Shown piece by piece: positions 5,028-51,120 of a DNA stretch of 64,000 bases. A model generated the notes under the pieces. The model saw only the letters and a list, made by a program, of their open reading frames with translations, was not told the origin of the DNA and made no database searches. The stretch is from an uncultured Solirubrobacterales bacterium (GTDB lineage: Bacteria > Actinomycetota > Thermoleophilia > Solirubrobacterales > JBBDJG01). The stretch spans positions 171,103 through 235,102 of the forward strand of contig CAVZDP010000009.1 in the NCBI GenBank assembly GCA_963774075.1, read 5' to 3'. The position numbers and the translations under genes are program-made. Positions within the stretch are counted from its first letter, which is position 1. Each line of letters begins with the position of its first letter.

Positions 5028-5385
5028 TTACTTGACAGCACCTTGGCAAACGAGGGCCTTTTCTTCACGGCATCTTGATATCCGAGTGAGTAGTGTCGCC
5101 GCCAAGGCAGGGTAGCCAGCCAAGGCCGCGGACGGCCTGAGCAGTCGAAGAACGGATCAGGGTGGAAGCGCTCACTGTTTACAGGGCGCAGCAGCAACAG
5201 GGGATAGGGGTGGATGTTCCGGGCCCCGGGCGGACCATTAGCTACGTGGCCGCGAACGTTGCCGGGTGCGTGGCAACGATCCCGACTCCTACCAACTGCC
5301 AGCCGTGCTTCAACGGCCGAGCGGTTCGGCAAGTGAAACCGGACATCGTGATCGCAGGAGCGTCTCGGCCGTGCAAGGAGGAAGG

Positions 5386-8300
5386 GTGAGAAAAGCGGGA
5401 ACTGCAAGCGGCTATAGGCGGCTCGTGTCGTGGCTTGGCGCTTCAGCCCTGCTGGTGGCGCTCATCTTGATCGCGACTGTGCCGGCCGCGGCAACACCGA
5501 GCTCCTGCGCCGCGATAGGCCTCGAGACCATCCAAACGGACAAGGCGGACTACGCCCCCGAGGAGACCGTGCACATGACCGGGACCGGCTACGCGCCGGC
5601 CTGCGACGTCGTGGTGCAGGTCACTCGCCCGAACGGGTCGATCGTGAAGGGCGATGGAAGCTTCGAGCCCGGCAGCGACACCGCCACCACCGACGGTGAC
5701 GGGAACCTCGTCTATGACTACATCCTCAACGGCATCCAGGGTGAATACGGCGTAGAAGTGCAGGGCGCCGACGGCAGCGTCCTGGCGACGACCAGCTTCA
5801 GCGACTCCGTGAGCGTCGTCTTGGAAGGCGGCGGAGACTGGAGTGCGACCGGAAGTACTTGCGCCACTCCCAACGACGCGATCTCGGACAACAACGTCCG
5901 AGCGTTGTGCGACTTCGGCGAGACCGTCGTCGGGCGAGATTTCGGCCTCCAGGCACAAGTACCTTCGTCTGCAACGGACATCAGTTTCGTTGCGATCGTC
6001 CGCGGGCGCGTGAGCAATGCCGACGACAACGACATCTTCGACGTCAGCCTCTCGCATGACGGCGGCACCAATTACACCTCTCCGGTCGTCGCCACCGACG
6101 CAGTAAACAACGTGATCCCCGCGGGAGCCGACCAAAACGTCGAGGCTCCGGCCGCCGGTACTACCGCCGCCTGTGCGGCCGGGAGCAACTTCGGGCGCAC
6201 CTGGACCTATTCGGAGCTCTCCGACGCGAACTTCCGGCTAAGGGTCGCTGCACACCCCAAGACCGTCGCGGGCACCGACGCGCTTCTCCAGCAGATGGAC
6301 ATCGACGACATCGACCTGGTCGTGTGCTACGCGGGGAGGTTCATCACCGCCGCTTCCGTCAGCGGGCCGCAGGCGAACAACCCTGGAACCCGGGACGTGT
6401 CGCTAACCGTCAATCACACCCTCGCTAACGGTTTCAGCGCAGCGACGGCCGACGATTGGGGCTCGACGGAGTACGAGATCGAGGGCCAAGGGTCGATCTG
6501 TTCCACCGTCCCGAATCCGGACGAGACCGGCAGCACCACCGACACTCACTCCATCCCCGTCGAGGCCCCGCTCGCGGCCGGTACCTACGACGTGACGATG
6601 CGGGCGTTCCGTGACGGAGCGTGCTCTCTGGGGGCGAGCGACCCGTGGGTGATCACGGACGGCATCACGGTCGATTCCAGCTTGCCGACCCTGCACAGGT
6701 CCTCCGAGAGTCAGACCTCCGCGACGTTCTCTCACGCTGTCTCCAGCGGCGGCGACCGTCTGCTCCTGGTGGCCGTGATGATCGACAGCATCGAGGACGC
6801 CACGTCCGTGACCTACGGCGGCGTGCCCCTCACGCACGAGTTCACACAGGCGGCCGGCGGTGGCACCAGCGATGGTCAAAGAGTTGAGATCTGGCGCCTC
6901 ACGAGTCCGCCGGTTGGAACCGCCAACGTCGTGGTCAACTTCGCGACCGCAGTCGCTTACAAGGGCGTCGCGGCGGCCAACTACACAGGTGTCGACCAGA
7001 GCGATCCAATCGGGGCCACCGGAGGGTCCCTCAGCGGCAGTGTCACTCTCACCACTACACAGAACGGGTCGACCATCTTCGGAGCGGTGTCGGCTGGCGG
7101 AGAGAATTCCGCCCCATTTACGACGACAAGCCCCGTTACGGAACTCTGGGACGCTGTCACCGGTGGCGGGAGCAATCAGGAGAGCACTGACGCCGGCCTG
7201 TGGGGCGGCCAGCGAGCGGCTCCATTCGCGGGTAGCAACACGATTGGCACAACGCACACGGGCCTCGCCGGCACAGATCTCGCCATCGCGGCTGTCGAGA
7301 TCAAGGCGCTCCAGACCGGCACGATCGTGATCACCAAGGACACGATCCCCGACGGCCCCCAGGACTTCACCTACACCGATGACATCGGCAACGGCTGCAC
7401 GATCGGCCCGCTCGACGACGACGCCGACAACACCAACCCCGCCAGCCAGACCTGCAACAACGTCACGCCCGGCCCCTACACGGTGACCGAGGACGACCCC
7501 ACGCCCGGCTTCGACCTCACCGACCTCGACTGCACCGACCCCGACAGCGGCACCACGACCTCGACCGCCAGCCGCCAGGCCTCGATCGACCTCGACCCGG
7601 GCGAGACCGTCAGCTGCACGTTCGAGAACACCGAGCGCGGCACGATCGTGATCACCAAGGACACGATCCCCGACGGCCCCCAGGACTTCACCTACACCGA
7701 TGACATCGGCAACGGCTGCACGATCGGCCCGCTCGACGACGACGCCGACAACACCAACCCCGCCAGCCAGACCTGCAACAACGTCACGCCCGGCCCCTAC
7801 ACGGTGACCGAGGACGACCCCACGCCCGGCTTCGACCTCACCGACCTCGACTGCACCGACCCCGACAGCGGCACCACGACCTCGACCGCCAGCCGCCAGG
7901 CCTCGATCGACCTCGACCCGGGCGAGACCGTCAGCTGCACGTTCGAGAACACCGAGCGCGGCACGATCGTGATCACCAAGGACACGATCCCCGACGGCCC
8001 CCAGGACTTCACCTACACCGATGACATCGGCAACGGCTGCACGATCGGCCCGCTCGACGACGACGCCGACAACACCAACCCCGCCAGCCAGACCTGCAAC
8101 AACGTCACGCCCGGCCCCTACACGGTGACCGAGGACGACCCCACGCCCGGCTTCGACCTCACCGACCTCGACTGCACCGACCCCGACAGCGGCACCACGA
8201 CCTCGACCGCCAGCCGCCAGGCCTCGATCGACCTCGACCCGGGCGAGACCGTCAGCTGCACGTTCGAGAACACCGAGCGCGGCACGATCGTGATCACCAA

Positions 8301-11280
8301 GGACACGATCCCCGACGGCCCCCAGGACTTCACCTACACCGATGACATCGGCAACGGCTGCACGATCGGCCCGCTCGACGACGACGCCGACAACACCAAC
8401 CCCGCCAGCCAGACCTGCAACAACGTCACGCCCGGCCCCTACACGGTGACCGAGGACGACCCCACGCCCGGCTTCGACCTCACCGACCTCGACTGCACCG
8501 ACCCCGACAGCGGCACCACGACCTCGACCGCCAGCCGCCAGGCCTCGATCGACCTCGACCCGGGCGAGACCGTCAGCTGCACGTTCGAGAACACCGAGCG
8601 CGGCACGATCGTGATCACCAAGGACACGATCCCCGACGGCCCCCAGGACTTCACCTACACCGATGACATCGGCAACGGCTGCACGATCGGCCCGCTCGAC
8701 GACGACGCCGACAACACCAACCCCGCCAGCCAGACCTGCAACAACGTCACGCCCGGCCCCTACACGGTGACCGAGGACGACCCCACGCCCGGCTTCGACC
8801 TCACCGACCTCGACTGCACCGACCCCGACAGCGGCACCACGACCTCGACCGCCAGCCGCCAGGCCTCGATCGACCTCGACCCGGGCGAGACCGTCAGCTG
8901 CACGTTCGAGAACACCGAGCGCGGCACGATCGTGATCACCAAGGACACGATCCCCGACGGCCCCCAGGACTTCACCTACACCGATGACATCGGCAACGGC
9001 TGCACGATCGGCCCGCTCGACGACGACGCCGACAACACCAACCCCGCCAGCCAGACCTGCAACAACGTCACGCCCGGCCCCTACACGGTGACCGAGGACG
9101 ACCCCACGCCCGGCTTCGACCTCACCGACCTCGACTGCACCGACCCCGACAGCGGCACCACGACCTCGACCGCCAGCCGCCAGGCCTCGATCGACCTCGA
9201 CCCGGGCGAGACCGTCAGCTGCACGTTCGAGAACACCGAGCGCGGCACGATCGTGATCACCAAGGACACGATCCCCGACGGCCCCCAGGACTTCACCTAC
9301 ACCGATGACATCGGCAACGGCTGCACGATCGGCCCGCTCGACGACGACGCCGACAACACCAACCCCGCCAGCCAGACCTGCAACAACGTCACGCCCGGCC
9401 CCTACACGGTGACCGAGGACGACCCCACGCCCGGCTTCGACCTCACCGACCTCGACTGCACCGACCCCGACAGCGGCACCACGACCTCGACCGCCAGCCG
9501 CCAGGCCTCGATCGACCTCGACCCGGGCGAGACCGTCAGCTGCACGTTCGAGAACACCGAGCGCGGCACGATCGTGATCGACAAGGACGCCGTACCAGAT
9601 GACCCGCAGGACTTCTCGTTCACGGGCGATTCGCCGATCGGCTCCTTCACGCTCGACGACGACGCCGACGGCACCAACCCGTCCTCGCGAAGCTTCCAGA
9701 TTCCGCCGGCGACCTACGACGTCACGGAAGGTGCGCTGGCGGGTTGGCTGCCTCCGAACATCAACTGCGCCGACCCGGACAGCGGGACGACGACAGACGT
9801 CCCCAACCGCACGGCCTCGATCGACCTCGACCCGGGCGAGACCGTGAGCTGCACGTTCACGAACGTGAAGGACACCGACGAGGACGGGATTCCGAACGTG
9901 GTCGACTGCACGCCGACTCTCGCCGACGACCATGTCGTCGACCCGGGCAACGTCGTCCCGGGAAGCTTCACGGGTAGCCGTCACAACACGCTCCAGGCGG
10001 CGGTCAACGCGGCGGCCGACAACCAGCTGATCAGCATGTACGCCAACACCACCGAGAACGTGGTCATCGGCGCGACTACCGGCTCCGGCAACAAGGACCT
10101 CCGCATCGAGGGCTGCGGCCACAAGGTGACGGCAGCCGATCCCTCCAAGCCGGCAATTCAGGCCGAGTCCTCGGCGGGCGCCGACGACGGCAACACCGGC
10201 AAGGGTGAGCGAGACATCCACATCGGCGACCTCGACGTGCGTGGATCGAGCTCGTCCTCCGGTTACCTGATCCAGACGAGCAAGGCCTCGTCCGGCACGT
10301 CGACCCTGCTGAAGGCAGTGCGATCCGAGAGCAACTCGATCGGAATCAAAATCGCCGGCCACGGAAACCACGTCCGCGGCTCCAACGGCGTCAAGCTCAA
10401 CTCCGGCGACGGCATTCAGGTGATCGGAAACAGCAACCTGATCGAGGAGAACCGCGTCGACGAGAACGGTGGCGACGGCATCGACGTCACCGGTAACTCA
10501 AACACGATCAAGAAGAGCAAGCTCGAGACCAACAACGCCGGAGACGGGATCAAGGTCGCTGGAAACTCGAACTCGCTGCCCGAGAACGACGTGTTCGACA
10601 GTGGCAGTGACGGCATCGACGTCACCGGGAACCTCAACGCGCTCACGAAGAACGACGTCGGCGACGCAGGCAAGGGCAACGGCGGAGATGGCATCAAGAT
10701 CACGGGCGACGGGAACCTGCTCGGCACGGCCGTGGCCGAGAACAGCATCTTCGCGAACACGGGCAGCGGTCTCGTCGTCAACGGAAACATGAACGCGCTC
10801 GTTAAGAACGTCGCGGGTGACCACAACAAGGGCAACGGCGGCGACGGCTTCCGCGTCAGCGGCTACGGCAATACGCTCACCGAGAACAAGGCGTGGGCGA
10901 ATGGCGGCGACGGTGTCGAGGTCAGCGGTGGCACCTCCGCCAAGCCGAACCGGCTGCTGAAGAACGTCGCGGGCGACTCGAACAAGGGCAACGGCGGCAA
11001 CGGATTCCTGCTCTCCGGCATCGGCAACGGCAACTCGGTCCCGATCGAGCTAGAGCAGAACACGGCCAAGAAGAACACGCTCGACGGCATCCGGGTCAAC
11101 GGCACGGGCTGGCAGCTCAAGAACAACATCAGCGGCGGCTCCGCCAGCGAGGACAACGGCGACTGCGAGTTCAGAGTCATCGCCGGCAACTTCAACGCCA
11201 CAGGCAACAAGGCGAACAACACGACGATCGCGGGTGCCAGCGGGAGCGCCTTCCCGACCGGATGCAGGGGGACGCCGTAA
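5386..11280 (+). CDS. Giant secreted surface protein 1 (signal peptide, unique N-terminal region, 7+1 Ig/prealbumin-like 107-aa repeats, C-terminal parallel beta-helix PbH1-type repeats)
   Basis: The ORF is open from 5266. In-frame GTG at 5386 follows AAGGAGGAAG and yields a signal-like N-terminus (LGASALLVALILIATVPAAA). Repeats end in the ETVSCTFENTE motif typical of prealbumin/SpaA-like folds. The C-terminus is a run of NxxGDGIxVxGNxN units typical of right-handed beta-helix proteins. Confidence 0.85.
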   Translation: MRKAGTASGYRRLVSWLGASALLVALILIATVPAAATPSSCAAIGLETIQTDKADYAPEETVHMTGTGYAPACDVVVQVTRPNGSIVKGDGSFEPGSDTATTDGDGNLVYDYILNGIQGEYGVEVQGADGSVLATTSFSDSVSVVLEGGGDWSATGSTCATPNDAISDNNVRALCDFGETVVGRDFGLQAQVPSSATDISFVAIVRGRVSNADDNDIFDVSLSHDGGTNYTSPVVATDAVNNVIPAGADQNVEAPAAGTTAACAAGSNFGRTWTYSELSDANFRLRVAAHPKTVAGTDALLQQMDIDDIDLVVCYAGRFITAASVSGPQANNPGTRDVSLTVNHTLANGFSAATADDWGSTEYEIEGQGSICSTVPNPDETGSTTDTHSIPVEAPLAAGTYDVTMRAFRDGACSLGASDPWVITDGITVDSSLPTLHRSSESQTSATFSHAVSSGGDRLLLVAVMIDSIEDATSVTYGGVPLTHEFTQAAGGGTSDGQRVEIWRLTSPPVGTANVVVNFATAVAYKGVAAANYTGVDQSDPIGATGGSLSGSVTLTTTQNGSTIFGAVSAGGENSAPFTTTSPVTELWDAVTGGGSNQESTDAGLWGGQRAAPFAGSNTIGTTHTGLAGTDLAIAAVEIKALQTGTIVITKDTIPDGPQDFTYTDDIGNGCTIGPLDDDADNTNPASQTCNNVTPGPYTVTEDDPTPGFDLTDLDCTDPDSGTTTSTASRQASIDLDPGETVSCTFENTERGTIVITKDTIPDGPQDFTYTDDIGNGCTIGPLDDDADNTNPASQTCNNVTPGPYTVTEDDPTPGFDLTDLDCTDPDSGTTTSTASRQASIDLDPGETVSCTFENTERGTIVITKDTIPDGPQDFTYTDDIGNGCTIGPLDDDADNTNPASQTCNNVTPGPYTVTEDDPTPGFDLTDLDCTDPDSGTTTSTASRQASIDLDPGETVSCTFENTERGTIVITKDTIPDGPQDFTYTDDIGNGCTIGPLDDDADNTNPASQTCNNVTPGPYTVTEDDPTPGFDLTDLDCTDPDSGTTTSTASRQASIDLDPGETVSCTFENTERGTIVITKDTIPDGPQDFTYTDDIGNGCTIGPLDDDADNTNPASQTCNNVTPGPYTVTEDDPTPGFDLTDLDCTDPDSGTTTSTASRQASIDLDPGETVSCTFENTERGTIVITKDTIPDGPQDFTYTDDIGNGCTIGPLDDDADNTNPASQTCNNVTPGPYTVTEDDPTPGFDLTDLDCTDPDSGTTTSTASRQASIDLDPGETVSCTFENTERGTIVITKDTIPDGPQDFTYTDDIGNGCTIGPLDDDADNTNPASQTCNNVTPGPYTVTEDDPTPGFDLTDLDCTDPDSGTTTSTASRQASIDLDPGETVSCTFENTERGTIVIDKDAVPDDPQDFSFTGDSPIGSFTLDDDADGTNPSSRSFQIPPATYDVTEGALAGWLPPNINCADPDSGTTTDVPNRTASIDLDPGETVSCTFTNVKDTDEDGIPNVVDCTPTLADDHVVDPGNVVPGSFTGSRHNTLQAAVNAAADNQLISMYANTTENVVIGATTGSGNKDLRIEGCGHKVTAADPSKPAIQAESSAGADDGNTGKGERDIHIGDLDVRGSSSSSGYLIQTSKASSGTSTLLKAVRSESNSIGIKIAGHGNHVRGSNGVKLNSGDGIQVIGNSNLIEENRVDENGGDGIDVTGNSNTIKKSKLETNNAGDGIKVAGNSNSLPENDVFDSGSDGIDVTGNLNALTKNDVGDAGKGNGGDGIKITGDGNLLGTAVAENSIFANTGSGLVVNGNMNALVKNVAGDHNKGNGGDGFRVSGYGNTLTENKAWANGGDGVEVSGGTSAKPNRLLKNVAGDSNKGNGGNGFLLSGIGNGNSVPIELEQNTAKKNTLDGIRVNGTGWQLKNNISGGSASEDNGDCEFRVIAGNFNATGNKANNTTIAGASGSAFPTGCRGTP
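7318..9564 (+). repeat. 7 x 321-bp nucleotide-identical in-frame tandem repeat (107 aa per unit), followed by a diverged 8th unit (9565-~9870)
   Basis: Units start at 7318, 7639, 7960, 8281, 8602, 8923 and 9244. The sequence text is the same in each unit. All antisense pseudo-ORFs recur with identical 71-aa translations at a 321-nt period. Confidence 0.95.
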
Positions 11281-11296
11281 GCATGAGGGGGCAACA

Positions 11297-14200
11297 ATGA
11301 CGAAGCGACTAAAACTCTTTTCGAGTCTCGTCCTCGCGACCGGCCTCTTGGCCGTGCTCGCGCCCTCACAGGCCGCAGCACACCCCGATCCCGACTGCAC
11401 CGCCCTCGGCGGCGTGATCACGCTCGCCGACGAGTGCGAGGTTCAGTCGAGCCAGACGGCCAAGGCCGGCACCTACAACATCTTCCACACGCTGATCATC
11501 AAGGCCGGCGTCCAGATCGACGCCACCACGCCCGGCACGGGCGGCATCACGATCAACATCAGTGGCGCCGGCAACGACCTGGTGATGGAGTCGGGCAGCG
11601 CGATCGAGGCAAACGACCCCTCGAGCCCCCCTAACGACAGCGCCCGCCCGATCACGATCACGGTTCCCGACGACATGACGATGATGGCCGGCAGCACGCT
11701 GGCGGAGAACAACTCTCAGGGCGGCTCGGGCGCCGACATCAGCCTGACGATCGGCGACGACTTCACGATGCAGTCGGGCTCGGAGATCTCGAGCTCGCGC
11801 AATGCCGGCACCACGACCGGCTCCGGCGGCGACATCGCGATCGACGTCGGCGGCGACATGCTGATGGAGGCCAACACCATCATCCACGCCGATGGCCAGA
11901 ACCCGGCCGCAGGCGACGTCACGATCAACGTCGACGGCGACATGACGATGAAGGGCACCGCCGGCCCGCTCGCCGGGGCCATCATCTCCGCCACGGGCAG
12001 CTTCGGCGACACCGCCGGCGACATCACGATCCACGTCGGCAACTTCCCCAACATCCCGCCCACGGGCGTCTTCACTCAGGAGACCGGCGCGGTCGTGACC
12101 GCGAGCTCGGGTGGGCCGGCTGGCGAGATCATCATCACCGCCGGCCGGGAGATGTCGGTCGACGGCTCCGTGCTCTCGGAGTCCGGTCAATCGGGCACCG
12201 GAGCCATCCAGCCGCCCGGCGGCGGCCCGATCACGCTCCAGGCGGGCTGCGGGCTCACCGTCTCCGACACCGGCCTCGTCTCCTCCAGGGGACAGGATCC
12301 GGGCGCCGACCTCGTCCACCTCGAGGCCTGCGAGGTCTTGATCCAGGGCGTCGTTCGCTCCTTCGCACCTGGCGCGGGACACGTGATCCCGACCGGCGGC
12401 AACCGCTGCAACGACGACACCACCGCCCACCCCACCAACGGCGCCGCGGGCTTCACGGGCTGCGTTGAGATCTGGGCCAAGAACGTCACGATCGACAACA
12501 CCGGCACCCACAACGGCGAGGTCCACACCGACGGCATCCGCAACCCGATGCGGGGCTGGGTCGACGTCTTCGCCCAGAAGGACGTCTCGATCCTGGGCGA
12601 CCCGACCACGCCCTACCCGACCACCTTCGACGCCAACGCCTTCGTCTACACCCCGCCCTACGCGGTGCACGCCAACGCCTGCCCGGCAAGCGACGGCCAG
12701 GCGCCCTGCTCGAACTCCTTCGGCGGCCTGATCACGGTCAAGTCGCTCGATGGCAAGGTCGCAGCCTCCGGGCGCGCCCTGCAGGCGACCGCCACCGCGC
12801 TCGGCGCAGACGGCGGTGACATCGTCGTCGAGGCGGGCGGAGCGGCTCCGGCGGGCGAGGTCGACCTCGACAGCGCGAGCCTGCAGGCGACCGGGCCCTC
12901 GGGCTCCAACACCGCCGGCGGCTCGGTCAGCGTTCGCTCCTGGGAGGACGACGTGCTCGGCGTCCCGCCGGGCGAGATCAAGGTCGCCGGCGACGGTCTC
13001 ACCGATCCCGGCACGATCACCCTCACCGCCTGCATGGACGTCAACTACACAGGCTCCACCGATCGCACCCCGACCGTCAACGAGGGTGCACCCTTCTGCG
13101 GCACTGGGCCGACGATTCCGGCCAGCGTGCTCTCCAACTTTGCGCTCCGCGCAGCGCTCTGGGACGCCTGCGACCCCCAGGAGGGAGTGAAGAAGGGCCA
13201 GAAGTTCAACGACCTCGACGGTGACGGCGTCAAGGACGCTGGCGAGCCGGGCCTACCGAACTGGACCATCCACATCTTCGGCACCACCAACGACAACGTG
13301 GTCGTCCACGAGGACATCCTCACCGACGCCAACGGCAACTACGAGATCACCCTTCCCCCCGGCACCTACACCGCCTGCGAGGAGCTTCAGACGGGCTGGG
13401 TGCAGACCTTCCCGAACCCCGGAAGCGACGGCAACGCCTGCGAGGGCCACAACCACCTCGGCAGCCCCGGCGCTGCCGGCTACACGTTCACGATCGTCGG
13501 TGGAGATACCCACGAGGGGAACGACTTTGGGAACCGCGAGAAGCCGCTCGAGTGCCCCGAGGACCCGGGTCGGGCCTCCTCGATCACGAGGATGGTCGAC
13601 GAGGACGGCACCTCGCACGCGGTGTCGGTGCCGAACCACCTGACCGTGCAGGAGGCCTACAACGCCGCCCAGGCCAGCGGCAACCCGAACGAGGTCATCG
13701 GCATGTTCTCCGAGACGACCGAGAACGTCGTCCTCAACGGGCCGAAGCGGGTGACCATCACGCAGTGCACGACCGCCAAGGTCACCGCAGCCGACAATTC
13801 GAAGCCGGTCTGGGACATCGGGCTCGGCGCCGGGCGCCTGCTGATCGTTGGCCCCGACTCCGTCGGCGGGACGATCGGCTGGAACGTCGCCGGCAACGGC
13901 CACGAGCTCAAGGGGCTGCGGGCCGAGGGCGCGAGCCAGTACGGCATTCGGGTGCTCGGCAACAACAACTCCGTCAGCTACAACTCGGTCGACACGAGCC
14001 CTGTCGGGATTCGAGTCGAGGGCGATTACACCGACCTTCGCGGCGGCACGGTCGAGAGGAACACCGGCGATGGCGTCCAGCTCGGCTCGACGGCCAACAA
14101 CAACACGTTCCGGACGGCGAACGTCCAGAGCAACGGCGGGAACGGGATCCTCGTCGAGGGCCCGACCAACACGATTCGCGACAACGGCCGGATCGACCTC

Positions 14201-14656: not shown

Positions 14657-17600
14657 ATGACGAAGCGACTAAAACTCCTTTCAAGCCTCGTCCTCGCGAC
14701 CGGCCTCTTGGCCGTGCTCGCGCCCTCACAGGCCGCAGCACACCCCGATCCCGACTGCACCGCCCTCGGCGGCGTGATCACGCTCGCCGACGAGTGCGAG
14801 GTTCAGTCGAGCCAGACGGCCAAGGCCGGCACCTACAACATCTTCCACACGCTGATCATCAAGGCCGGCGTCCAGATCGACGCCACCACGCCCGGCACGG
14901 GCGGCATCACGATCAACATCAGTGGCGCCGGCAACGACCTGGTGATGGAGTCGGGCAGCGCGATCGAGGCAAACGACCCCTCGAGCCCCCCTAACGACAG
15001 CGCCCGCCCGATCACGATCACGGTTCCCGACGACATGACGATGATGGCCGGCAGCACGCTGGCGGAGAACAACTCTCAGGGCGGCTCGGGCGCCGACATC
15101 AGCCTGACGATCGGCGACGACTTCACGATGCAGTCGGGCTCGGAGATCTCGAGCTCGCGCAATGCCGGCACCACGACCGGCTCCGGCGGCGACATCGCGA
15201 TCGACGTCGGCGGCGACATGCTGATGGAGGCCAACACCATCATCCACGCCGATGGCCAGAACCCGGCCGCAGGCGACGTCACGATCAACGTCGACGGCGA
15301 CATGACGATGAAGGGCACCGCCGGCCCGCTCGCCGGGGCCATCATCTCCGCCACGGGCAGCTTCGGCGACACCGCCGGCGACATCACGATCCACGTCGGC
15401 AACTTCCCCAACATCCCGCCCACGGGCGTCTTCACTCAGGAGACCGGCGCGGTCGTGACCGCGAGCTCGGGTGGGCCGGCTGGCGAGATCATCATCACCG
15501 CCGGCCGGGAGATGTCGGTCGACGGCTCCGTGCTCTCGGAGTCCGGTCAATCGGGCACCGGAGCCATCCAGCCGCCCGGCGGCGGCCCGATCACGCTCCA
15601 GGCGGGCTGCGGGCTCACCGTCTCCGACACCGGCCTCGTCTCCTCCAGGGGACAGGATCCGGGCGCCGACCTCGTCCACCTCGAGGCCTGCGAGGTCTTG
15701 ATCCAGGGCGTCGTTCGCTCCTTCGCACCTGGCGCGGGACACGTGATCCCGACCGGCGGCAACCGCTGCAACGACGACACCACCGCCCACCCCACCAACG
15801 GCGCCGCGGGCTTCACGGGCTGCGTTGAGATCTGGGCCAAGAACGTCACGATCGACAACACCGGCACCCACAACGGCGAGGTCCACACCGACGGCATCCG
15901 CAACCCGATGCGGGGCTGGGTCGACGTCTTCGCCCAGAAGGACGTCTCGATCCTGGGCGACCCGACCACGCCCTACCCGACCACCTTCGACGCCAACGCC
16001 TTCGTCTACACCCCGCCCTACGCGGTGCACGCCAACGCCTGCCCGGCAAGCGACGGCCAGGCGCCCTGCTCGAACTCCTTCGGCGGCCTGATCACGGTCA
16101 AGTCGCTCGATGGCAAGGTCGCAGCCTCCGGGCGCGCCCTGCAGGCGACCGCCACCGCGCTCGGCGCAGACGGCGGTGACATCGTCGTCGAGGCGGGCGG
16201 AGCGGCTCCGGCGGGCGAGGTCGACCTCGACAGCGCGAGCCTGCAGGCGACCGGGCCCTCGGGCTCCAACACCGCCGGCGGCTCGGTCAGCGTTCGCTCC
16301 TGGGAGGACGACGTGCTCGGCGTCCCGCCGGGCGAGATCAAGGTCGCCGGCGACGGTCTCACCGATCCCGGCACGATCACCCTCACCGCCTGCATGGACG
16401 TCAACTACACAGGCTCCACCGATCGCACCCCGACCGTCAACGAGGGTGCACCCTTCTGCGGCACTGGGCCGACGATTCCGGCCAGCGTGCTCTCCAACTT
16501 TGCGCTCCGCGCAGCGCTCTGGGACGCCTGCGACCCCCAGGAGGGAGTGAAGAAGGGCCAGAAGTTCAACGACCTCGACGGTGACGGCGTCAAGGACGCT
16601 GGCGAGCCGGGCCTACCGAACTGGACCATCCACATCTTCGGCACCACCAACGACAACGTGGTCGTCCACGAGGACATCCTCACCGACGCCAACGGCAACT
16701 ACGAGATCACCCTTCCCCCCGGCACCTACACCGCCTGCGAGGAGCTTCAGACGGGCTGGGTGCAGACCTTCCCGAACCCCGGAAGCGACGGCAACGCCTG
16801 CGAGGGCCACAACCACCTCGGCAGCCCCGGCGCTGCCGGCTACACGTTCACGATCGTCGGTGGAGATACCCACGAGGGGAACGACTTTGGGAACAGGAAG
16901 CTCGAGTGCGAGAAGGGCCCTGTCAAGGACGTGCTCAACCCGACGACTGGGCGCTTCCCCGGCAACGCAGGACCCGATGTGATCGTACGGATCGACCTCG
17001 GTCAGTCCGTCCAGGATGCTGTCGACAACGTCAGCGACGTCAACGGCGACCAGAAGCTCATCATCTTGGTCCTCAAGGACGGGACGGGGCAGCTCGGCGG
17101 GCACACGAGCCAGGAAGTCGTCATCGACGACGCCTACAGCCTGCCGTTCGGCCTGATCGGCTGCAGCGTGACGCTTCACGATCCGACCCCCAATGACGCC
17201 AACCCGACGATCCGCATCGCATCCTCTGCTGGAAGCCCACAGAACATCTTCCTGATGGACCTCCATGCTGCGGACAGCAAGGCCGCGGGCATCGCGGTCG
17301 AGGGCAATGGCCGCTACCTGCGTAACGAGAACGTCCTCAACAACGCGGTCGGCTTCAAGATCACCGGCAACGCCAACACCGTCCACAACGGCGCGGCGAC
17401 GGGCAACACCGGTGCCGGTGCCAACGTCCAGGGCGACAGCAACGTGCTCACGGACACCGACTCCTACTCGAACGGCGTCGGCTTCCAGGTCACGGGCAAC
17501 AACAACCAGCTCCTCAAGCTCGACGCAGGAGACAAGGGCAAGGGGAACCTCGGCGACGGCGTCAACGTCAACGGCGCCAACAACCTGTTGTCCGAGATCG

Positions 17601-18052
17601 GGGCCTTCGCCAACGGCGGCGACGGCATCGACGTCACCGGCAACACCAACCGCCTGCTGAAGAACGTCGCCGGCGACTCGGGCAAGGGCAACGGGGCCGA
17701 CGGCATTCACCTCGCGGGCTCCGGGGCGACGATTCAGGAGAACAAGGCCAGCAGCAACAAGACGACCAGCACGACCGGTGACGGGTTCGACATCAGCGGC
17801 GGCGTGAGCGCCGCTCCGAACAAGCTGAAGAACAACTCCAGCAACACCGGATCCTCGGGAAGCTCGACCCACGAGAACGGCGGCGCAGAGTACCGCCTGC
17901 TCAACTACGTGCGAAACGACGGGGGTGGCAACAAGGCCGACGGCGTAGTCGTCCCCAAGACGACGAGCCCGGTGAAGTGCAATGCCGGCGCCACTCAGTT
18001 CCCGGCCATGAATGTCACGCTCAACCTCATGTCGGCGACCGCGTGCGAGTAG
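14657..18052 (+). CDS. Giant secreted surface protein 3 (N-terminal ~745 aa identical to protein 2, different PbH1 C-terminal cassette B)
   Basis: 1131-aa ORF starting MTKRLKLLSSLVLATG. Diverges from gene 2 right after ...HEGNDFGN. C-terminal tail KCNAGATQFPAMN...ACE is homologous to the gene 2 tail. Confidence 0.85.
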   Translation: MTKRLKLLSSLVLATGLLAVLAPSQAAAHPDPDCTALGGVITLADECEVQSSQTAKAGTYNIFHTLIIKAGVQIDATTPGTGGITINISGAGNDLVMESGSAIEANDPSSPPNDSARPITITVPDDMTMMAGSTLAENNSQGGSGADISLTIGDDFTMQSGSEISSSRNAGTTTGSGGDIAIDVGGDMLMEANTIIHADGQNPAAGDVTINVDGDMTMKGTAGPLAGAIISATGSFGDTAGDITIHVGNFPNIPPTGVFTQETGAVVTASSGGPAGEIIITAGREMSVDGSVLSESGQSGTGAIQPPGGGPITLQAGCGLTVSDTGLVSSRGQDPGADLVHLEACEVLIQGVVRSFAPGAGHVIPTGGNRCNDDTTAHPTNGAAGFTGCVEIWAKNVTIDNTGTHNGEVHTDGIRNPMRGWVDVFAQKDVSILGDPTTPYPTTFDANAFVYTPPYAVHANACPASDGQAPCSNSFGGLITVKSLDGKVAASGRALQATATALGADGGDIVVEAGGAAPAGEVDLDSASLQATGPSGSNTAGGSVSVRSWEDDVLGVPPGEIKVAGDGLTDPGTITLTACMDVNYTGSTDRTPTVNEGAPFCGTGPTIPASVLSNFALRAALWDACDPQEGVKKGQKFNDLDGDGVKDAGEPGLPNWTIHIFGTTNDNVVVHEDILTDANGNYEITLPPGTYTACEELQTGWVQTFPNPGSDGNACEGHNHLGSPGAAGYTFTIVGGDTHEGNDFGNRKLECEKGPVKDVLNPTTGRFPGNAGPDVIVRIDLGQSVQDAVDNVSDVNGDQKLIILVLKDGTGQLGGHTSQEVVIDDAYSLPFGLIGCSVTLHDPTPNDANPTIRIASSAGSPQNIFLMDLHAADSKAAGIAVEGNGRYLRNENVLNNAVGFKITGNANTVHNGAATGNTGAGANVQGDSNVLTDTDSYSNGVGFQVTGNNNQLLKLDAGDKGKGNLGDGVNVNGANNLLSEIGAFANGGDGIDVTGNTNRLLKNVAGDSGKGNGADGIHLAGSGATIQENKASSNKTTSTTGDGFDISGGVSAAPNKLKNNSSNTGSSGSSTHENGGAEYRLLNYVRNDGGGNKADGVVVPKTTSPVKCNAGATQFPAMNVTLNLMSATACE
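14687..16894 (+). repeat. Copy B of the 2208-bp perfect segmental duplication
   Basis: See 11327-13534. Confidence 0.9.
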
Positions 18053-18150
18053 TGGAGCCCTGCACTTGACAGCCAAACCCCGACAGCGAGAAGGTAGCGA
18101 TGGCAAGGTTGCACGCGAGCCGGGTCGGGCTCGCCACGTCAGGAGGACAC

Positions 18151-18180
18151 ATGTATCTCACATCCGAGCGCCTCAGGTGA
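18151..18180 (+). other. 9-codon upstream ORF (MYLTSERLR) with a strong SD; its stop overlaps the GTG start of giant gene 4
   Basis: AGGAGG at 18141-18146, ATG at 18151 in the +1 frame relative to the giant ORF. TGA at 18178-18180 overlaps GTG at 18177-18179 (GTGA). Alternatively this is another 1-nt indel and 18151 is the true start. Confidence 0.3.
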
Positions 18181-20168
18181 ATCGTTCCAAGGGTGGGAGT
18201 CGCCGCGGCCGCGGCGTCGTGACTCTCCTGGCAACGCTCGTCCTGTCGGCTGTTTTCGCAGGGTCGGCCTCGGCCGACCAGGCCGGCTGCGACCTGGGCA
18301 CCTACAACGTGATCTTTGACGAGTGCCAGATCTCCGGTCCCACGACGGCCACCGGAGTGAAGAACTTCCACCACTCGGTGCACATGCTGCCCGGCTCGAG
18401 CATCAATGCGAGCGGAGGCGGAATCACCCTCAACATCAATGGCGCCTCCGGGCTCGACTTCACGATGGACACGACCAGCTCCGTCATCGAGGCCAACGAC
18501 GATGGCCTGCCCTCGGGTGCGAGCGCGAGCCCAATCAACATCAACGCGACCGGCGACATGGAGATGCAGGCCGGCGCCAGGATCCTCGCCGAGAACGCGA
18601 ACAACGGCGGAAGCGGCGGCAACATCACGATCGACGTCGACGGCGACCTGACGATGGCCGGAGCGGTCGGGCTGGTGCCGGGCGCGATCATCTCGACTCG
18701 CAAGTCCGCTGGCGCCGGCGACACAGGCTTGGGGGGCAACATTACGATCATGGTCGGCGACTCCACGGCGGCGACCGGCACCTTCTTCATGGGCGGCGGC
18801 TCCACCACCTACGGCGCGGAGACCGGCGCGAAGCTGATCGCCACCGGCACAGGACCGGCCGGTGACATAACGGTCAACGCCGGCCGCACCTATACGACCG
18901 AGCCCGGCTCGGTCGTCGAGGCGGGGGATGGCAACGGGACCACGGTCCAGCAGGGCGGCAAGATCTTTCTCGCCTCCGGCTGCGGCCTGACGACCAAGGG
19001 CCGCGTGACCAGCAAGGGCACGGACCCGGGCGCCGACCTCGTTCACATCGAGGCCTGCGACGTCCTCATCGCCGGCCTCGTCGAGTCGACCGGCAGGGCG
19101 CACGCGACCGGGATCAGGAACAGCTGCGACAACGTGAACGACGGCCTCGCCGGGGAGGTCCTCCGGCCCGGCAAGCCGGCTGAGTCGACGGCCTGCATCG
19201 AGGTCTGGGCCAACAACGTCACCATCGACTCGACCAACGGCAACGCCGGCGAGCTGAACGCGGACATCGGCAACGGGGGGAGCGGGGGCAGATCATGGAT
19301 AGACGTCTTTGCCTTCACCGACCTGACTGTCAAGGACGGCAGCGGCAACAACCGCACCAGCAGCAACGGCGGCGGTTCCTACCTGAACACCTTCGCGGTG
19401 CACGCGAAGTCGATCGGTGGCTCTGACAACACTCCGAACACGATCACCGCCAAGGCCAAGACGGGCGTGCTGACGGTTACCGGCGACGCCTTCCAAGCGG
19501 GCTCGGACGGCAATGGCTCCAACGGCGGCTCGATCGTGCTTCAGAGCTCCGGCAACGCCACCCTGGATACCTCGCTCGAGGCGTCCTCCGGCGGCGGTGC
19601 TGCGGGCGACGGCGGCTCGATCGCGGTCAGGTCGTTCAACGGCAACATCAGCTGGCAGAACGGCGAGGGCGACGTCACTGGGAGCCCAAACGGGACGATC
19701 TCGCTGACCTCCTGCGGCACGGTCAACACCGCCGGGTCGAACTTCCACAGCGTGTCTGTCACGACGGCGAGTTCCTGCGGCGGCATGCCCTCGATCCCCG
19801 GGGTGAGCCCCGACTACACGAATGGTTTCTTCGACAGCGCCACGCGCTGGGACAATTGCAACGAAGAGGGAACGATCATCGTCGAGAAGCAGACCGTCCC
19901 GGACGGTGCGACGGGCAACTTCACGTTCACGGGCGACGCGGCCGGCACGATCTCCGACGGCCAGCAGATCGTCGTATCCGGGCTGACAGCCGGTACCTAC
20001 ACCTCCACGGAGGCAGACCCCTCGCCGGGTTTCGACCTCACCGACATTCAGTGCACGGACTCTGACAACGCGGGCGTTGCGAGCTCGGGCGACACTCAGA
20101 CTCGAACGGCGACGATCAACCTCGACCCCGGCGAGACCGTCAGCTGCACGTTCGAGAACACCGAGCGC

Positions 20169-23100
20169 GGCAAGGTCGTGATCACCAAGGACACGATCCC
20201 CAACGGCCCCCAGGACTTCACCTACACCGACACCATCCCCAACGGCTGCCAGATCGGCCCCCTCGACGACGACTCCGACAACACCAACCCCAACAACACG
20301 ACCTGCCTCAACGTCACCCCCGGCACCTACAGCGTGACCGAGGACGACCCGACGCCGGGCTTCGACCTCACCGACCTCACCTGCACCGACTCTGACGCCG
20401 GCGGCACCGACTCCACGGGCTCGACCGCCACCCGCACGGCGACGATCAACCTCGACCCCGGCGAGACCGTCAGCTGCACGTTCGAGAACACCGAGCGCGG
20501 CAAGGTCGTGATCACCAAGGACACGATCCCCAACGGCCCCCAGGACTTCACCTACACCGACACCATCCCCAACGGCTGCCAGATCGGCCCCCTCGACGAC
20601 GACTCCGACAACACCAACCCCAACAACACGACCTGCCTCAACGTCACCCCCGGCACCTACAGCGTGACCGAGGACGACCCGACGCCGGGCTTCGACCTCA
20701 CCGACCTCACCTGCACCGACTCTGACGCCGGCGGCACCGACTCCACGGGCTCGACCGCCACCCGCACGGCGACGATCAACCTCGACCCCGGCGAGACCGT
20801 CAGCTGCACGTTCGAGAACACCGAGCGCGGCAAGGTCGTGATCACCAAGGACACGATCCCCAACGGCCCCCAGGACTTCACCTACACCGACACCATCCCC
20901 AACGGCTGCCAGATCGGCCCCCTCGACGACGACTCCGACAACACCAACCCCAACAACACGACCTGCCTCAACGTCACCCCCGGCACCTACAGCGTGACCG
21001 AGGACGACCCGACGCCGGGCTTCGACCTCACCGACCTCACCTGCACCGACTCTGACGCCGGCGGCACCGACTCCACGGGCTCGACCGCCACCCGCACGGC
21101 GACGATCAACCTCGACCCCGGCGAGACCGTCAGCTGCACGTTCGAGAACACCGAGCGCGGCAAGGTCGTGATCACCAAGGACACGATCCCCAACGGCCCC
21201 CAGGACTTCACCTACACCGACACCATCCCCAACGGCTGCCAGATCGGCCCCCTCGACGACGACTCCGACAACACCAACCCCAACAACACGACCTGCCTCA
21301 ACGTCACCCCCGGCACCTACAGCGTGACCGAGGACGACCCGACGCCGGGCTTCGACCTCACCGACCTCACCTGCACCGACTCTGACGCCGGCGGCACCGA
21401 CTCCACGGGCTCGACCGCCACCCGCACGGCGACGATCAACCTCGACCCCGGCGAGACCGTCAGCTGCACGTTCGAGAACACCGAGCGCGGCAAGGTCGTG
21501 ATCACCAAGGACACGATCCCCAACGGCCCCCAGGACTTCACCTACACCGACACCATCCCCAACGGCTGCCAGATCGGCCCCCTCGACGACGACTCCGACA
21601 ACACCAACCCCAACAACACGACCTGCCTCAACGTCACCCCCGGCACCTACAGCGTGACCGAGGACGACCCGACGCCGGGCTTCGACCTCACCGACCTCAC
21701 CTGCACCGACTCTGACGCCGGCGGCACCGACTCCACGGGCTCGACCGCCACCCGCACGGCGACGATCAACCTCGACCCCGGCGAGACCGTCAGCTGCACG
21801 TTCGAGAACACCGAGCGCGGCAAGGTCGTGATCACCAAGGACACGATCCCCAACGGCCCCCAGGACTTCACCTACACCGACACCATCCCCAACGGCTGCC
21901 AGATCGGCCCCCTCGACGACGACTCCGACAACACCAACCCCAACAACACGACCTGCCTCAACGTCACCCCCGGCACCTACAGCGTGACCGAGGACGACCC
22001 GACGCCGGGCTTCGACCTCACCGACCTCACCTGCACCGACTCTGACGCCGGCGGCACCGACTCCACGGGCTCGACCGCCACCCGCACGGCGACGATCAAC
22101 CTCGACCCCGGCGAGACCGTCAGCTGCACGTTCGAGAACACCGAGCGCGGCAAGGTCGTGATCACCAAGGACACGATCCCCAACGGCCCCCAGGACTTCA
22201 CCTACACCGACACCATCCCCAACGGCTGCCAGATCGGCCCCCTCGACGACGACTCCGACAACACCAACCCCAACAACACGACCTGCCTCAACGTCACCCC
22301 CGGCACCTACAGCGTGACCGAGGACGACCCGACGCCGGGCTTCGACCTCACCGACCTCACCTGCACCGACTCTGACGCCGGCGGCACCGACTCCACGGGC
22401 TCGACCGCCACCCGCACGGCGACGATCAACCTCGACCCCGGCGAGACCGTCAGCTGCACGTTCGAGAACACCGAGCGCGGCAAGGTCGTGATCACCAAGG
22501 ACACGATCCCCAACGGCCCCCAGGACTTCACCTACACCGACACCATCCCCAACGGCTGCCAGATCGGCCCCCTCGACGACGACTCCGACAACACCAACCC
22601 CAACAACACGACCTGCCTCAACGTCACCCCCGGCACCTACAGCGTGACCGAGGACGACCCGACGCCGGGCTTCGACCTCACCGACCTCACCTGCACCGAC
22701 TCTGACGCCGGCGGCACCGACTCCACGGGCTCGACCGCCACCCGCACGGCGACGATCAACCTCGACCCCGGCGAGACCGTCAGCTGCACGTTCGAGAACA
22801 CCGAGCGCGGCAAGGTCGTGATCACCAAGGACACGATCCCCAACGGCCCCCAGGACTTCACCTACACCGACACCATCCCCAACGGCTGCCAGATCGGCCC
22901 CCTCGACGACGACTCCGACAACACCAACCCCAACAACACGACCTGCCTCAACGTCACCCCCGGCACCTACAGCGTGACCGAGGACGACCCGACGCCGGGC
23001 TTCGACCTCACCGACCTCACCTGCACCGACTCTGACGCCGGCGGCACCGACTCCACGGGCTCGACCGCCACCCGCACGGCGACGATCAACCTCGACCCCG

Positions 23101-24455
23101 GCGAGACCGTCAGCTGCACGTTCGAGAACACCGAGCGCGGCAAGGTCGTGATCACCAAGGACACGATCCCCAACGGCCCCCAGGACTTCACCTACACCGA
23201 CACCATCCCCAACGGCTGCCAGATCGGCCCCCTCGACGACGACTCCGACAACACCAACCCCAACAACACGACCTGCCTCAACGTCACCCCCGGCACCTAC
23301 AGCGTGACCGAGGACGACCCGACGCCGGGCTTCGACCTCACCGACCTCACCTGCACCGACTCTGACGCCGGCGGCACCGACTCCACGGGCTCGACCGCCA
23401 CCCGCACGGCGACGATCAACCTCGACCCCGGCGAGACCGTCAGCTGCACGTTCGAGAACACCGAGCGCGGCAAGGTCGTGATCACCAAGGACACGATCCC
23501 CAACGGCCCCCAGGACTTCACCTACACCGACACCATCCCCAACGGCTGCCAGATCGGCCCCCTCGACGACGACTCCGACAACACCAACCCCAACAACACG
23601 ACCTGCCTCAACGTCACCCCCGGCACCTACAGCGTGACCGAGGACGACCCGACGCCGGGCTTCGACCTCACCGACCTCACCTGCACCGACTCTGACGCCG
23701 GCGGCACCGACTCCACGGGCTCGACCGCCACCCGCACGGCGACGATCAACCTCGACCCCGGCGAGACCGTCAGCTGCACGTTCGAGAACACCGAGCGCGG
23801 CAAGGTCGTGATCACCAAGGACACGATCCCCAACGGCCCCCAGGACTTCACCTACACCGACACCATCCCCAACGGCTGCCAGATCGGCCCCCTCGACGAC
23901 GACTCCGACAACACCAACCCCAACAACACGACCTGCCTCAACGTCACCCCCGGCACCTACAGCGTGACCGAGGACGACCCGACGCCGGGCTTCGACCTCA
24001 CCGACCTCACCTGCACCGACTCTGACGCCGGCGGCACCGACTCCACGGGCTCGACCGCCACCCGCACGGCGACGATCAACCTCGACCCCGGCGAGACCGT
24101 CAGCTGCACGTTCGAGAACACCGAGCGCGGCAAGGTCGTGATCACCAAGGACACGATCCCCAACGGCCCCCAGGACTTCACCTACACCGACACCATCCCC
24201 AACGGCTGCCAGATCGGCCCCCTCGACGACGACTCCGACAACACCAACCCCAACAACACGACCTGCCTCAACGTCACCCCCGGCACCTACAGCGTGACCG
24301 AGGACGACCCGACGCCGGGCTTCGACCTCACCGACCTCACCTGCACCGACTCTGACGCCGGCGGCACCGACTCCACGGGCTCGACCGCCACCCGCACGGC
24401 GACGATCAACCTCGACCCCGGCGAGACCGTCAGCTGCACGTTCGAGAACACCGAG
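20169..24455 (+). repeat. 13 x 330-bp nucleotide-identical in-frame tandem repeat (110 aa per unit; the last unit lacks its final codon)
   Basis: Units start at 20169 + n*330. Identical antisense 74-aa pseudo-ORFs recur at 20327...23957, plus a variant at 24287. A diverged unit 0 lies at ~19870-20168. Confidence 0.95.
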
Positions 24456-26161
24456 GACGCCACCGTCACGATCACCAAGGACGCGATCCCGGACGGTCCG
24501 CCAGGACTTCAGCTTCAGCGACCACCGGCCTCAACGGCGCCTGATCGGCCCTTCACGCTCGAGCGACGACGGCAACGAGACAAACGAGCCGGCGACTCCC
24601 GGCACCGGCGGCGACTGGCCGAAGACCAAGAAGTTCACGTTCTCCGGCTCCGACTTCGGAGCGAAGACGATCACCGGGTCGGTCCCGAGCGGCTGGACGA
24701 ACTCCGCCTACAGCTTGCTCCGAGGGCACCAAGAGTGGAACGACGACCGCGAACTTCACGGTCGACCCAGGCGACACGATCAGCGTGCAACTACGAGAAC
24801 ACCAAGGACGCCACCGTCACGATCACCAAGGACGCGATCCCGGATTCCGGCCAGGACTTCCGCTTCTCGACCACCGGCTCAGGCCTCGCGCCCTTCACGC
24901 TCGAGGACGACGGCAACGAGACAAACGAGCCGGCGACTCCCGGCACCGGCGGCGACTGGCCGAAGACCAAGAAGTTCACGTTCACTGGCTCCGACTTCGG
25001 GCGAAGACGATCACCGAGTCGTCCCGCGCGGCTGGACGAACTCCGCCTACAGTTGCTCCGAGGGCACCAAGAGTGGAACGACGACCGCGAACTTCACGGT
25101 CGACCCAGGCGACACGATCACGTGCAACTACGAGAACACCAAGGACGCCACCGTCACGATCACCAAGGACGCGATCCCGGACTCAGGCCAGGACTTCAGC
25201 TTCACGACCTCCGGCTCGGGCCTCTCGAGCTTCACGCTCGAGGACGACGGCAACGAGACAAACGAGCCGGCGACTCCCGGCACCGGCGGCGACTGGCCGA
25301 AGACCAAGAAGTTCACGTTCTCCGGCTCCGACTTCGGAGCGAAGACGATCACCGAGTCGGTCCCGAGCGGCTGGACGAACTCCGCCTACAGCTGCTCCGA
25401 GGGCACCAAGAGTGGAACGACGACCGCGAACTTCACGGTCGACCCAGGCGACACGATCACGTGCAACTACGAGAACAAGAAGAACGCGACCATCACGATC
25501 ACCAAGGACGCGATCCCGGATAGCGCGCAGAACTTCCCCTTCGGCTCTACTGGCCTCGCCCCATTCACGCTCGAGGACGACGGCAACGAGACAAACGAGC
25601 CGGCGACTCCCGGCACCGGCGGCGACTGGCCGAAGACCAAGAAGTTCACGGTCACTGGCTCCAACTACCCCTTCGGGCAGAAGACGATCACCGAGGTCGT
25701 CCCCGCAGGCTGGACGAACTCCGCCTACAGTTGCTCCGAGGGCACCAAGAGTGGAACGACGACCGCGAACTTCACGGTCGACCCAGGCGACACGATCACG
25801 TGCAACTACGAGAACACCAAGGACGCCACCGTCACGATCACCAAGGACGCGATCCCGGATTCCGGCCAGGACTTCAGCTTCTCGACCACCGGCTCAGGCC
25901 TTCGGGCCCTTCACGCTCGAGGACGACGGCAACGAGACAAACGAGCCGGCGACTCCCGGCACCGGCGGCGACTGGCCGAAGACCAAGAAGTTCACGTTCT
26001 CCGGCTCCGACTTCGGAGCGAAGACGATCACCGAGTCGGTCCCGAGCGGCTGGACGAACTCCGCCTACAGCTGCTCCGAGGGCACCAAGAGTGGAACGAC
26101 GACCGCGAACTTCACGGTCGACCCAGGCGACACGATCACGTGCAACTACGAGAACAAGAAG
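24456..26161 (+). repeat. Second repeat family R2, 5 units of ~339 bp (113 aa: DATVTITKDAIPDSGQDF...DDGNETNEPATPGTGGDWPKTKKFTF...CSEGTKSGTTTANFTVDPGDTITCNYENTK), imperfect and carrying indels
   Basis: Unit starts are 24456, 24807, 25144, 25483 and 25822. Unit lengths are 351, 337, 339, 339 and 340 bp. Confidence 0.85.
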
Positions 26162-27150
26162 AACGCGACCGTGACGGTCTACAAGTACAAGGACCTCAAC
26201 GGCAGCGGCAGCAAGGACCCGAGCGAGCCCTTCCTCAGCGGCTGGACCATCAAGATCTACCAGGGATCGTCGACCACGCCGCTGGCGACCCAGACCACGA
26301 ACGGCTCGGGGCAGGCGACCTTCTCGGTGAAGCCCGACCAGGCCTATCGCATCTGTGAGACGCTCCAGTCGGGATGGTTCAACACCGACCCCGGCGATGT
26401 GCCGCAGGGCACCGATCCGTGCAAGATGACAACCACCCTGGGAGCGGACCAGGCAGCCATCCTCTACTTCGGCAATCGCAAGGCGCTGACCACGGGTGCG
26501 AGAACGAAGGGCTTCTGGCGCAACAACAACGGGCAGGGCGTCATCACGGCGTCCTGTAGCCCCAGCGGCAAGCCATCGCTGTACTCGTTCCTAACGCAGT
26601 ACAACCCGTTCAAAGACCTGACATCCAGCAGCTGCAGTGCGATTGCCGGCTACGTCACGAACATCGTCGACGCGGCCGACTCATCGGGTACCTCGATGAA
26701 CCCGATGCTGAAGGCCCAGATGCTCTCTACCGCGCTTGACGTCTACTTCAGCGACCCCGCCCTGGGCTGGTCGTCCAGCGTGAACTCCTTCATCCCGAAC
26801 ACGACGATAGGTGGCATCACCATCGACCTTCAACACGTCTGCGCCATGTTCGACAGCAGCGCCGACCCTGCGGTCTGCACGGGCTCGTTCCGCGACGCGG
26901 GCGAGTGTGCGTTCGGCGGTGCCGACAGCATGACGGTGTCGCAGATGCTGGCCTATGCAGCGAGTAAAGCGGCGGTGGCGACATCGGCCAACCCGCTCGC
27001 CTCGCCCTGGTACGAGCAGGTCAAGACGACCCAGGAGTGCGCCAAGGACGCATTCGATGCCATCAACAACGAGGTTGCGTTCGGCCCGTAACGCAGCGCT
27101 TTGACTCCACGCACCCGATCGCGCCGGTTTCTGGGTAGGGTTCCTACGCG

Positions 27151-50932: not shown

Positions 50933-51120
50933 CGGCGAAAGCAAGCTCCCCCGCACGAAGTCGCCCTGACACTTCTGGCGGATTAGGTGGCTCACGTAAG
51001 TGGCCAGTCCTAGCGCACCCCGGCTGTCGCTTGGCGCGGAGGCTGTCGCACGAAGTCCGCGCCAGGCATTAAAACGCCGCCCTGAGTTAGGCGGCGGTGA
51101 GAATCGAACGCTGGGTCTCT

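Follow-up and report, generated by a model that had tools for sequence, protein, structure and literature searches.

Stalks built from identical repeats are already an established design of bacterial surface proteins. Periscope Proteins, exemplified by Sgo_0707 (SHIRT), Rib / alpha C, SasG and Esp, are single-chain surface proteins whose highly identical, foldable domains stand in tandem and vary in number by recombination (Whelan et al. 2021, PMC8201768; review PMC9704523). Region II (RII) of the Marinomonas primoryensis adhesin MpAFP / MpIBP comprises around 120 repeats whose DNA sequences are identical and which form a Ca2+-stiffened rod of about 0.6 µm (PMC4083281), and the extender genes of such RTX adhesins are known to break both assemblies and annotation (PMC4083281, PMC7493085). 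In the giant adhesin of the actinobacterium Mobiluncus mulieris, the presence of Lys-Asn isopeptide bonds and disulfides within the domains has been verified (PMC10619420). Here, we describe an array of 330-nt repeats in an uncultured Solirubrobacterales bacterium, located on a 64,000-nucleotide stretch of contig CAVZDP010000009.1 (GenBank assembly GCA_963774075.1, positions 171,103 to 235,102 of the forward strand; 65.8% G+C), hereafter called the window. The array lies in gene 4, one of four co-directional genes separated by short gaps (genes 1-4), and we consider it likely that it encodes the stalk, extendable and probably cross-linked, of a giant fibrillar protein which this uncultured actinobacterium secretes.

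Shifting gene 4 against itself by 330 nt gave perfect DNA identity over 20106-24455 (4350 nt, 13.18 units, 4020 consecutive matching positions), and Tandem Repeats Finder (TRF), run on the window, reported 20106-24551 with a period of 330 and 13.5 copies. The array is in frame within the open reading frame (ORF) 18012-25523, where it translates into thirteen identical units of 110 amino acids (aa). Shift comparison, TRF and translation thus agree with the perfect, in-frame 330-bp periodicity that an earlier, sequence-only reading had described for gene 4, and the array is a striking piece of real coding sequence. Two details of that reading changed on measurement. The part of the preceding, diverged unit that already matches the array, given there as 66 nt, is 63 nt long, and while the thirteen units are identical over 20106-24455, in the register originally chosen (20169-24458) the last codon of unit 13 differs (R to D). 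The core of the locus, with units named after the Pfam family SpaA_4, therefore reads as follows:

19869..20168, forward strand: diverged first SpaA_4 unit of 100 aa without the Cys-flanked acidic loop; the final 63 nt (20106-20168) are already array-identical
20169..24458, forward strand: thirteen SpaA_4 units of 330 nt / 110 aa each; DNA perfectly identical over 20106-24455, unit 13 deviating in its last codon only

A single 110-aa unit matched Pfam SpaA_4 (PF24514, described by Pfam as 'Prealbumin-like fold domain') with 54.5 bits and an E-value of 2.4e-14 over profile positions 1-106 of 107, that is, across the full profile and above the curated gathering cut-off of 27.3 bits. Pfam SpaA_2 was matched as well (29.5 bits, above its cut-off), while SdrD_B (PF17210) gave no Pfam match to the array unit and NCBIfam yielded no usable match for six translated stretches from genes 1-4. 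AlphaFold2, supplied with 20 aligned units taken from the window and database homologues, predicted one unit as an all-beta domain of eight strands (predicted local distance difference test (pLDDT) 92.8, predicted template modelling score (pTM) 0.85). Comparing this model to the PDB with Foldseek returned CnaB2, streptococcal and other pilins, the M. mulieris giant adhesin (5u6f) and the B regions of SdrD and UafA, with isopeptide-bearing CnaB / pilin domains, 5u6f and SdrD at the top (probability 0.94-0.99, template modelling score 0.53-0.57). A profile search of PDB sequences similarly recovered pilins and FbaB CnaB2, at marginal E-values; the matches from a plain sequence search of the PDB were weak, the best (E 6e-4) being to designed Ig proteins. 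Taken together, the unit is an SpaA_4 domain, a prealbumin / CnaB-like beta-sandwich, and each 110-aa unit would be expected to fold on its own as an eight-strand sandwich.

Conservation was assessed over 341 distinct units, which a profile search had drawn from 85 sources, namely the window and 84 fetched loci. Lys7 was conserved in 86%, Glu58 in 90%, Asn107 in 94%, Cys72 in 95% and Cys103 in 98% of units, and the Lys/Glu/Asn triad was complete in 245 of 286 units. CnaB-type domains carry a Lys in the first strand, an Asn or Asp in the last strand and a catalytic Glu or Asp; K7, N107 and E58 occupy these places, a residue pattern that, read from the sequence, is that of a spontaneous Lys-Asn isopeptide bond. 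Each unit is thus probably locked by a Glu58-catalyzed Lys7-Asn107 bond together with a Cys72-Cys103 disulfide. Among stalk domains of Gram-positive bacteria, those of the M. mulieris adhesin and the pilin CnaB domains (Spy0128, FbaB CnaB2), which have a Lys-Asn isopeptide bond and a disulfide, belong to the fold class of the gene 4 unit. The Mobiluncus protein differs in that its 51 domains are diverged and include ester and thioester domains and in that it carries an LPxTG anchor, and while its isopeptide bond has been verified, that of the gene 4 unit is predicted from the conserved K/E/N residues only.

In addition, the array units contain a second cysteine pair, Cys27 and Cys46, which brackets an acidic loop of around 10 residues, LDDDSDNTNP. 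This insertion occurs only in both window arrays (a second one, in gene 1, is described below) and in locus L002 from a related genome, and it is absent from 80 other family loci. Array units thus add to the SpaA_4 domain a loop that most family members lack, and the distribution of the loop marks it as a lineage-specific insertion. The Cys27-Cys46 disulfide would close the loop, which may, as the sequence-only reading had proposed, bind Ca2+; it is also the least confident block of the AlphaFold2 unit model (pLDDT 81). A TSP3 or EF-hand assignment was considered for the loop, but Pfam gave it no support. With RII and other RTX extenders, gene 4 shares the many DNA-identical beta-sandwich repeats. 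Acidic residues are proposed to bind Ca2+ and to stiffen the rod in those proteins, a role that the loop of gene 4 may only be presumed to share. RTX extenders are built from BIg-fold repeats and belong to Gram-negative adhesins that leave the cell by type I secretion and bear RTX repeats at the C-terminus, whereas gene 4 has a Sec-type signal peptide, a CnaB-like unit and no RTX repeats. Neither HemolysinCabind nor BIg Pfam matches were found in gene 4, placing it outside the RTX extender class.

A sister array is present in gene 1:

7317..9579, forward strand: 7.05 perfect 321-nt / 107-aa SpaA_4 units in gene 1 (ORF 5266-11280), identified by shift identity and TRF

The sequence-only reading had called the two units homologous, sharing four Cys and several motifs, with roughly 75-80% protein identity and three extra codons in the gene 4 unit. 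A codon-aware alignment bears this out: 85 of 107 aa are identical (79%), nucleotide identity is 87%, and a single 3-codon indel separates the units. The longest identical runs, of up to 39 nt, lie at the unit boundary, and both units contain the four Cys, DDDxDNTNP and the motifs DDPTPGFDLTDL and LDPGETVSCTFENTER. Judging from the sequence, chance cannot be the source of either the repeat periodicity or the similarity between the arrays. Codons differing between the two arrays were more often non-synonymous (22) than synonymous (7), with a ratio of non-synonymous to synonymous divergence (dN/dS) of about 1.2; as this ratio rests on 41 differences in a genome whose G+C content at third codon positions (GC3) of 0.9 constrains synonymous change, the excess is suggestive only.

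While divergence within the arrays was zero, synonymous divergence (dS) was about 0.12 between gene 4 and gene 1 units, about 0.23 between gene 4 and L002 units and about 0.5-0.7 towards the end units, the terminal units of the arrays being diverged. Locus L002, which stems from an independent assembly of a related metagenome-assembled genome (MAG), has an array of its own with 15 units of 333 nt, of which nine are identical; at the protein level they share 69% identity with the unit of gene 4. The presence of this separate array supports homogenization within each array. The giant gene of L002 (6800-14920), split into at least five calls by public annotation, encodes a head sharing 36-49% identity with a portion of the gene 1 head, followed by the units and a C-terminus with LPFTG, a hydrophobic, membrane-spanning segment and RRRAGAR, that is, a sortase anchor. 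Its sequence layout is one of head, stalk and anchor. Identical internal units, diverged edges and separate homogenization in each gene and genome are what unequal crossing-over or gene conversion predicts. Recent events of unequal recombination, slippage or gene conversion among the units would accordingly account for the identity of the DNA, amplifying and homogenizing the array while leaving its end units diverged. The sequence-only reading had gone further in calling the locus a textbook case of concerted evolution with arrays homogenized to 100%. Homogenization of each array alongside divergence between arrays is supported by the values above as far as sequence can go, yet ongoing gene conversion is inseparable from a recent burst of amplification, and the zero divergence is that of a long-read-style assembly with obvious indel noise adjoining the array.

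Other relatives carry other stalks. L001 (11676-13385), from a Microflora Danica (MFD) MAG, and L083 (10001-14043) encode orthologues of the gene 4 head (63-64% identical) bearing a different stalk of SpaA_3-type units. In L001 there are five copies of 342 nt at 96% identity; in L083, the contig of which ends within the array, the copies are identical. Stalk modules thus appear, from these sequences, to have been swapped between orthologous heads. Among 80 short-read metagenome loci of the family, we found 2-7 units at 69-93% identity, the exception being L061 with a two-unit repeat at 99%; perfect arrays cannot be represented in this short-read collection. Scanning with the gene 4 head returned one distant relative only from the genomes and none from the metagenomes.

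Outside the array, gene 4 comprises the following features:

18177..18275, forward strand: probable GTG start and signal peptide (VNRSKGGSRRGRGVVTLLATLVLSAVFAGSASA, then DQAGCD), from sequence and orthologue comparison
18276..19868, forward strand: head of around 530 aa, a predicted right-handed beta-solenoid of an unannotated family (AlphaFold2, Foldseek)
24456..26161, forward strand: five units of about 339 nt / 113 aa, a second SpaA_4 subtype with two Cys (92% mean column identity), broken by 1-nt indels
26165..26480, forward strand: SdrD_B-like beta-sandwich domain (Pfam SdrD_B at 26.5 bits, under the cut-off of 29.7)
26483..27091, forward strand: C-terminal domain of around 200 aa from an unannotated family (352 homologues; P0135, from public annotation, 100% identical), followed by the stop codon

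With its frame repaired, the gene 4 protein (18177-27091) reads as a chain of about 2,970 residues with 19 SpaA_4 domains, namely one diverged, thirteen identical and five of the 113-aa subtype. The sequence-only reading had named neither the SpaA_4 / CnaB-like identity of the unit nor its Lys/Glu/Asn triad, and had missed both the frameshifts past the array and the extension of the gene to 27091. The proposed order is a signal peptide, the beta-solenoid head, the 19 SpaA_4 domains, the SdrD_B-like domain and the uncharacterized C-terminal domain. The mature N-terminus DQAGCDLGTYNV is kept in the orthologue P0015, which bears its own signal peptide. Upstream, a strong AGGAGG at 18141-18146 precedes an ATG at 18151 that opens a 9-codon ORF (MYLTSERLR), the TGA stop of which (18178-18180) overlaps the GTG start of gene 4 at 18177 (GTGA). 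This short ORF may be a coupling upstream ORF, or a 1-nt error may mask the true start of gene 4. The head had no Pfam match and shares 35% identity with its counterparts in genes 2 and 3. Its AlphaFold2 model was all-beta (pLDDT 87.8, pTM 0.90), and Foldseek returned weak matches to right-handed beta-helix proteins (tailspikes, Ag43, PL6 lyases), with no significant match to a solved structure. The 125 homologues of the head are spread across phyla, including Thermoanaerobaculia, Chitinophagaceae with a type IX secretion system sorting tail, and Pirellulales; family members usually have around 950 aa in the order head, SdrD_B, Beta_helix.

At the other end, the C-terminal domain has no Pfam model, and most of its 352 matches stand alone as proteins of 180-350 aa. 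Its role may be attachment or the binding of a partner. L084 carries the best homologue of this domain, there following SdrD_B-type repeats instead; it was rejected as a counterpart of gene 4, its repeats being of SdrD_B type and its DNA showing no similarity to that of gene 4. Neither LPXTG nor a hydrophobic tail was found in the reconstructed C-terminus of gene 4.

Compared with Periscope Proteins, gene 4 likewise encodes a single, secreted chain with an N-terminal head and tandem folded domains that are highly identical in DNA, an identity expected to permit length change by recombination. Tandem, highly identical, independently foldable repeats in one chain, as in that class, are found here too. 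The differences are that the repeat is SpaA_4 / CnaB-like, that no LPXTG or other anchor was found and that the host is an uncultured, probably soil-dwelling actinobacterium rather than a pathogen. Membership in the class is incomplete, since surface attachment is only putative and length variation only presumed. Functionally, identical DNA would make the number of units easy to alter, and the head could thereby be held at varying distances by a presumably rod-like stalk. Thirteen units would be about 65 nm long, if each spans about 5 nm as in MpAFP RII.

Several observations weigh against this reading. Neither gene 4 nor any of genes 1-3 showed an anchor to the cell wall or membrane, making attachment to the surface only putative. 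Searches of the genome and metagenome collections turned up no conspecific sequence, just distant relatives with other arrays, and variation in stalk length is thus a proposal from the identity of the units. The Foldseek E-values were weak (0.045 or worse), so it is chiefly Pfam and the conserved residues that support the fold. Finally, taken literally, frameshifts downstream of the array would cost the protein its C-terminal part. As assembled, the gene 4 ORF leaves the domain frame just past the array and stops at 25523, although the domain sequence runs on cleanly in other frames as far as the stop codon at 27091. In an alignment of the five 339-nt units, at least six isolated single-base indels were located within 24456-25910 (24564, 24715, 24783, 25001, 25021 and 25902-25907). 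These units have few unit-specific substitutions, which the indels roughly equal or outnumber. Indels rivaling substitutions in number make an unnatural mutation spectrum that looks like long-read consensus error.

The frameshift cluster bears directly on the most serious alternative, namely that the array exists, but that its exact form is partly a product of assembly or polishing, such that the thirteen units and their 100% identity could be mistaken. A perfect tandem array may come out of a long-read assembler too short or too long, and reads that do not span it, if placed arbitrarily, can erase rare unit-specific variants. The isolated 1-nt indels in conserved sequence right beside the array are unlike natural mutation, and the relatives, being Nanopore-only MAGs, show a like pattern: in L002, each of the six non-identical units (1-6) contains one or two indels and the nine identical units none, and the L083 contig breaks off as noted above. 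Microflora Danica assemblies were produced from Nanopore reads only, using Flye and one round of Medaka (PMC12313526). Likewise, the public gene call for the window's own 428-kb contig is a fragment (P0135, 306 aa). On the other side, near-perfect sequence is common to both window arrays and to those from independent assemblies, unit-specific substitutions in L002 survived the pipeline, showing that not every difference was erased, and the noise falls in nearly identical rather than identical units. An assembly-wide indel problem was rejected; the non-mobile genes of the window are intact, and only an integrase and a transposase are split. We regard an array distorted in this way as a real but minority prospect. 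Given the indel noise beside it, the figure of thirteen and the 100% identity rest on a consensus that needs read-level proof, and whether the assembly holds the correct number of units is beyond what sequence alone can show. As a separate observation on L002, the same 1-nt insertions recur at equivalent positions across several of its units.

Alternatively, the frameshifts could be real and gene 4 a decaying pseudogene, in which translation ends out of frame at 25523 and the array is a relic. The number of frame-breaking indels and the presence of other frameshifted genes in the window, the integrase and the insertion sequence (IS) transposase, would fit such decay. Against it, the indels are singletons in units with very few private substitutions, the segments between them are clean, conserved domain sequence free of stops in the correct frame, 7.4 kb upstream are open with a GC3 of 0.91, and the other broken genes belong to mobile elements, which often decay. 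A pseudogene is hence unlikely, and the cluster is probably due to local consensus errors in near-identical repeats.

A further reading accepts the protein as an intact stalk but holds that its units are more than spacers, each being a binding module whose disulfide-closed acidic loop contacts Ca2+, a mineral surface or a polysaccharide, with thirteen copies providing multivalent avidity. The loop is indeed lineage-specific, kept in both arrays and in L002 and absent from the 80 other loci, its standing as the least confident part of the model would suit such a role, and the differences between the arrays mostly change amino acids. These differences carry the limits on dN/dS given above, a binding function is a proposal only here, and where such acidic sites are known, they lend stiffness to the stalk and do not serve to bind ligands (PMC4083281, PMC7493085). 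We thus find this reading quite improbable and favor a stalk that serves to extend the head. The boldest version, in which internally homogenized arrays of ligand- or mineral-binding units diverge under diversifying selection, and the four genes form a cassette system by which soil actinobacteria exchange the specificity and length of the stalks on secreted fibers without an anchor, is very unlikely.

Elsewhere in the four-gene locus, a second near-identical region links genes 2 and 3:

11319..13537, forward strand: 2.2-kb block in gene 2 whose DNA matches 14679-16897 of gene 3 at about 100% identity, spanning signal peptide, head and SdrD_B domain

Both genes are ORFs of 1131 aa with diverged C-terminal beta-helix thirds, and the block reflects either a second case of homogenization or a duplication of very recent date within this locus. 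Scans for a promoter-like site upstream of gene 1 and for a terminator-like site downstream of gene 4 returned none, and these scans were uninformative. Further along the window, two abutting DUF1990 genes (49539-50294 and 50294-50932) form a tandem pair of paralogues. The phage-type integrase (54019-55264) has its N-terminal SAM-like and catalytic domains in different frames, as does the IS transposase (50597-52621) with DUF772 and DDE_Tnp_1, and another fragment of DUF772 is present at 32793-33392. Either decay of mobile elements or additional indel errors would account for these.

If the predicted isopeptide bond is real, the compact 110-aa unit could be of interest for SpyCatcher-type protein engineering. 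Giant stalk genes were fragmented in public annotation of long-read MAGs in the window, L002, L083 and L084, indicating that giant surface proteins are systematically under-called. Stalks of identical repeats have been known chiefly from pathogens and from a few RTX adhesins; the present locus brings this design to uncultured, high-GC actinobacteria, with an SpaA_4 / CnaB-like unit in which an isopeptide bond, two disulfides and an acidic loop are probably combined.

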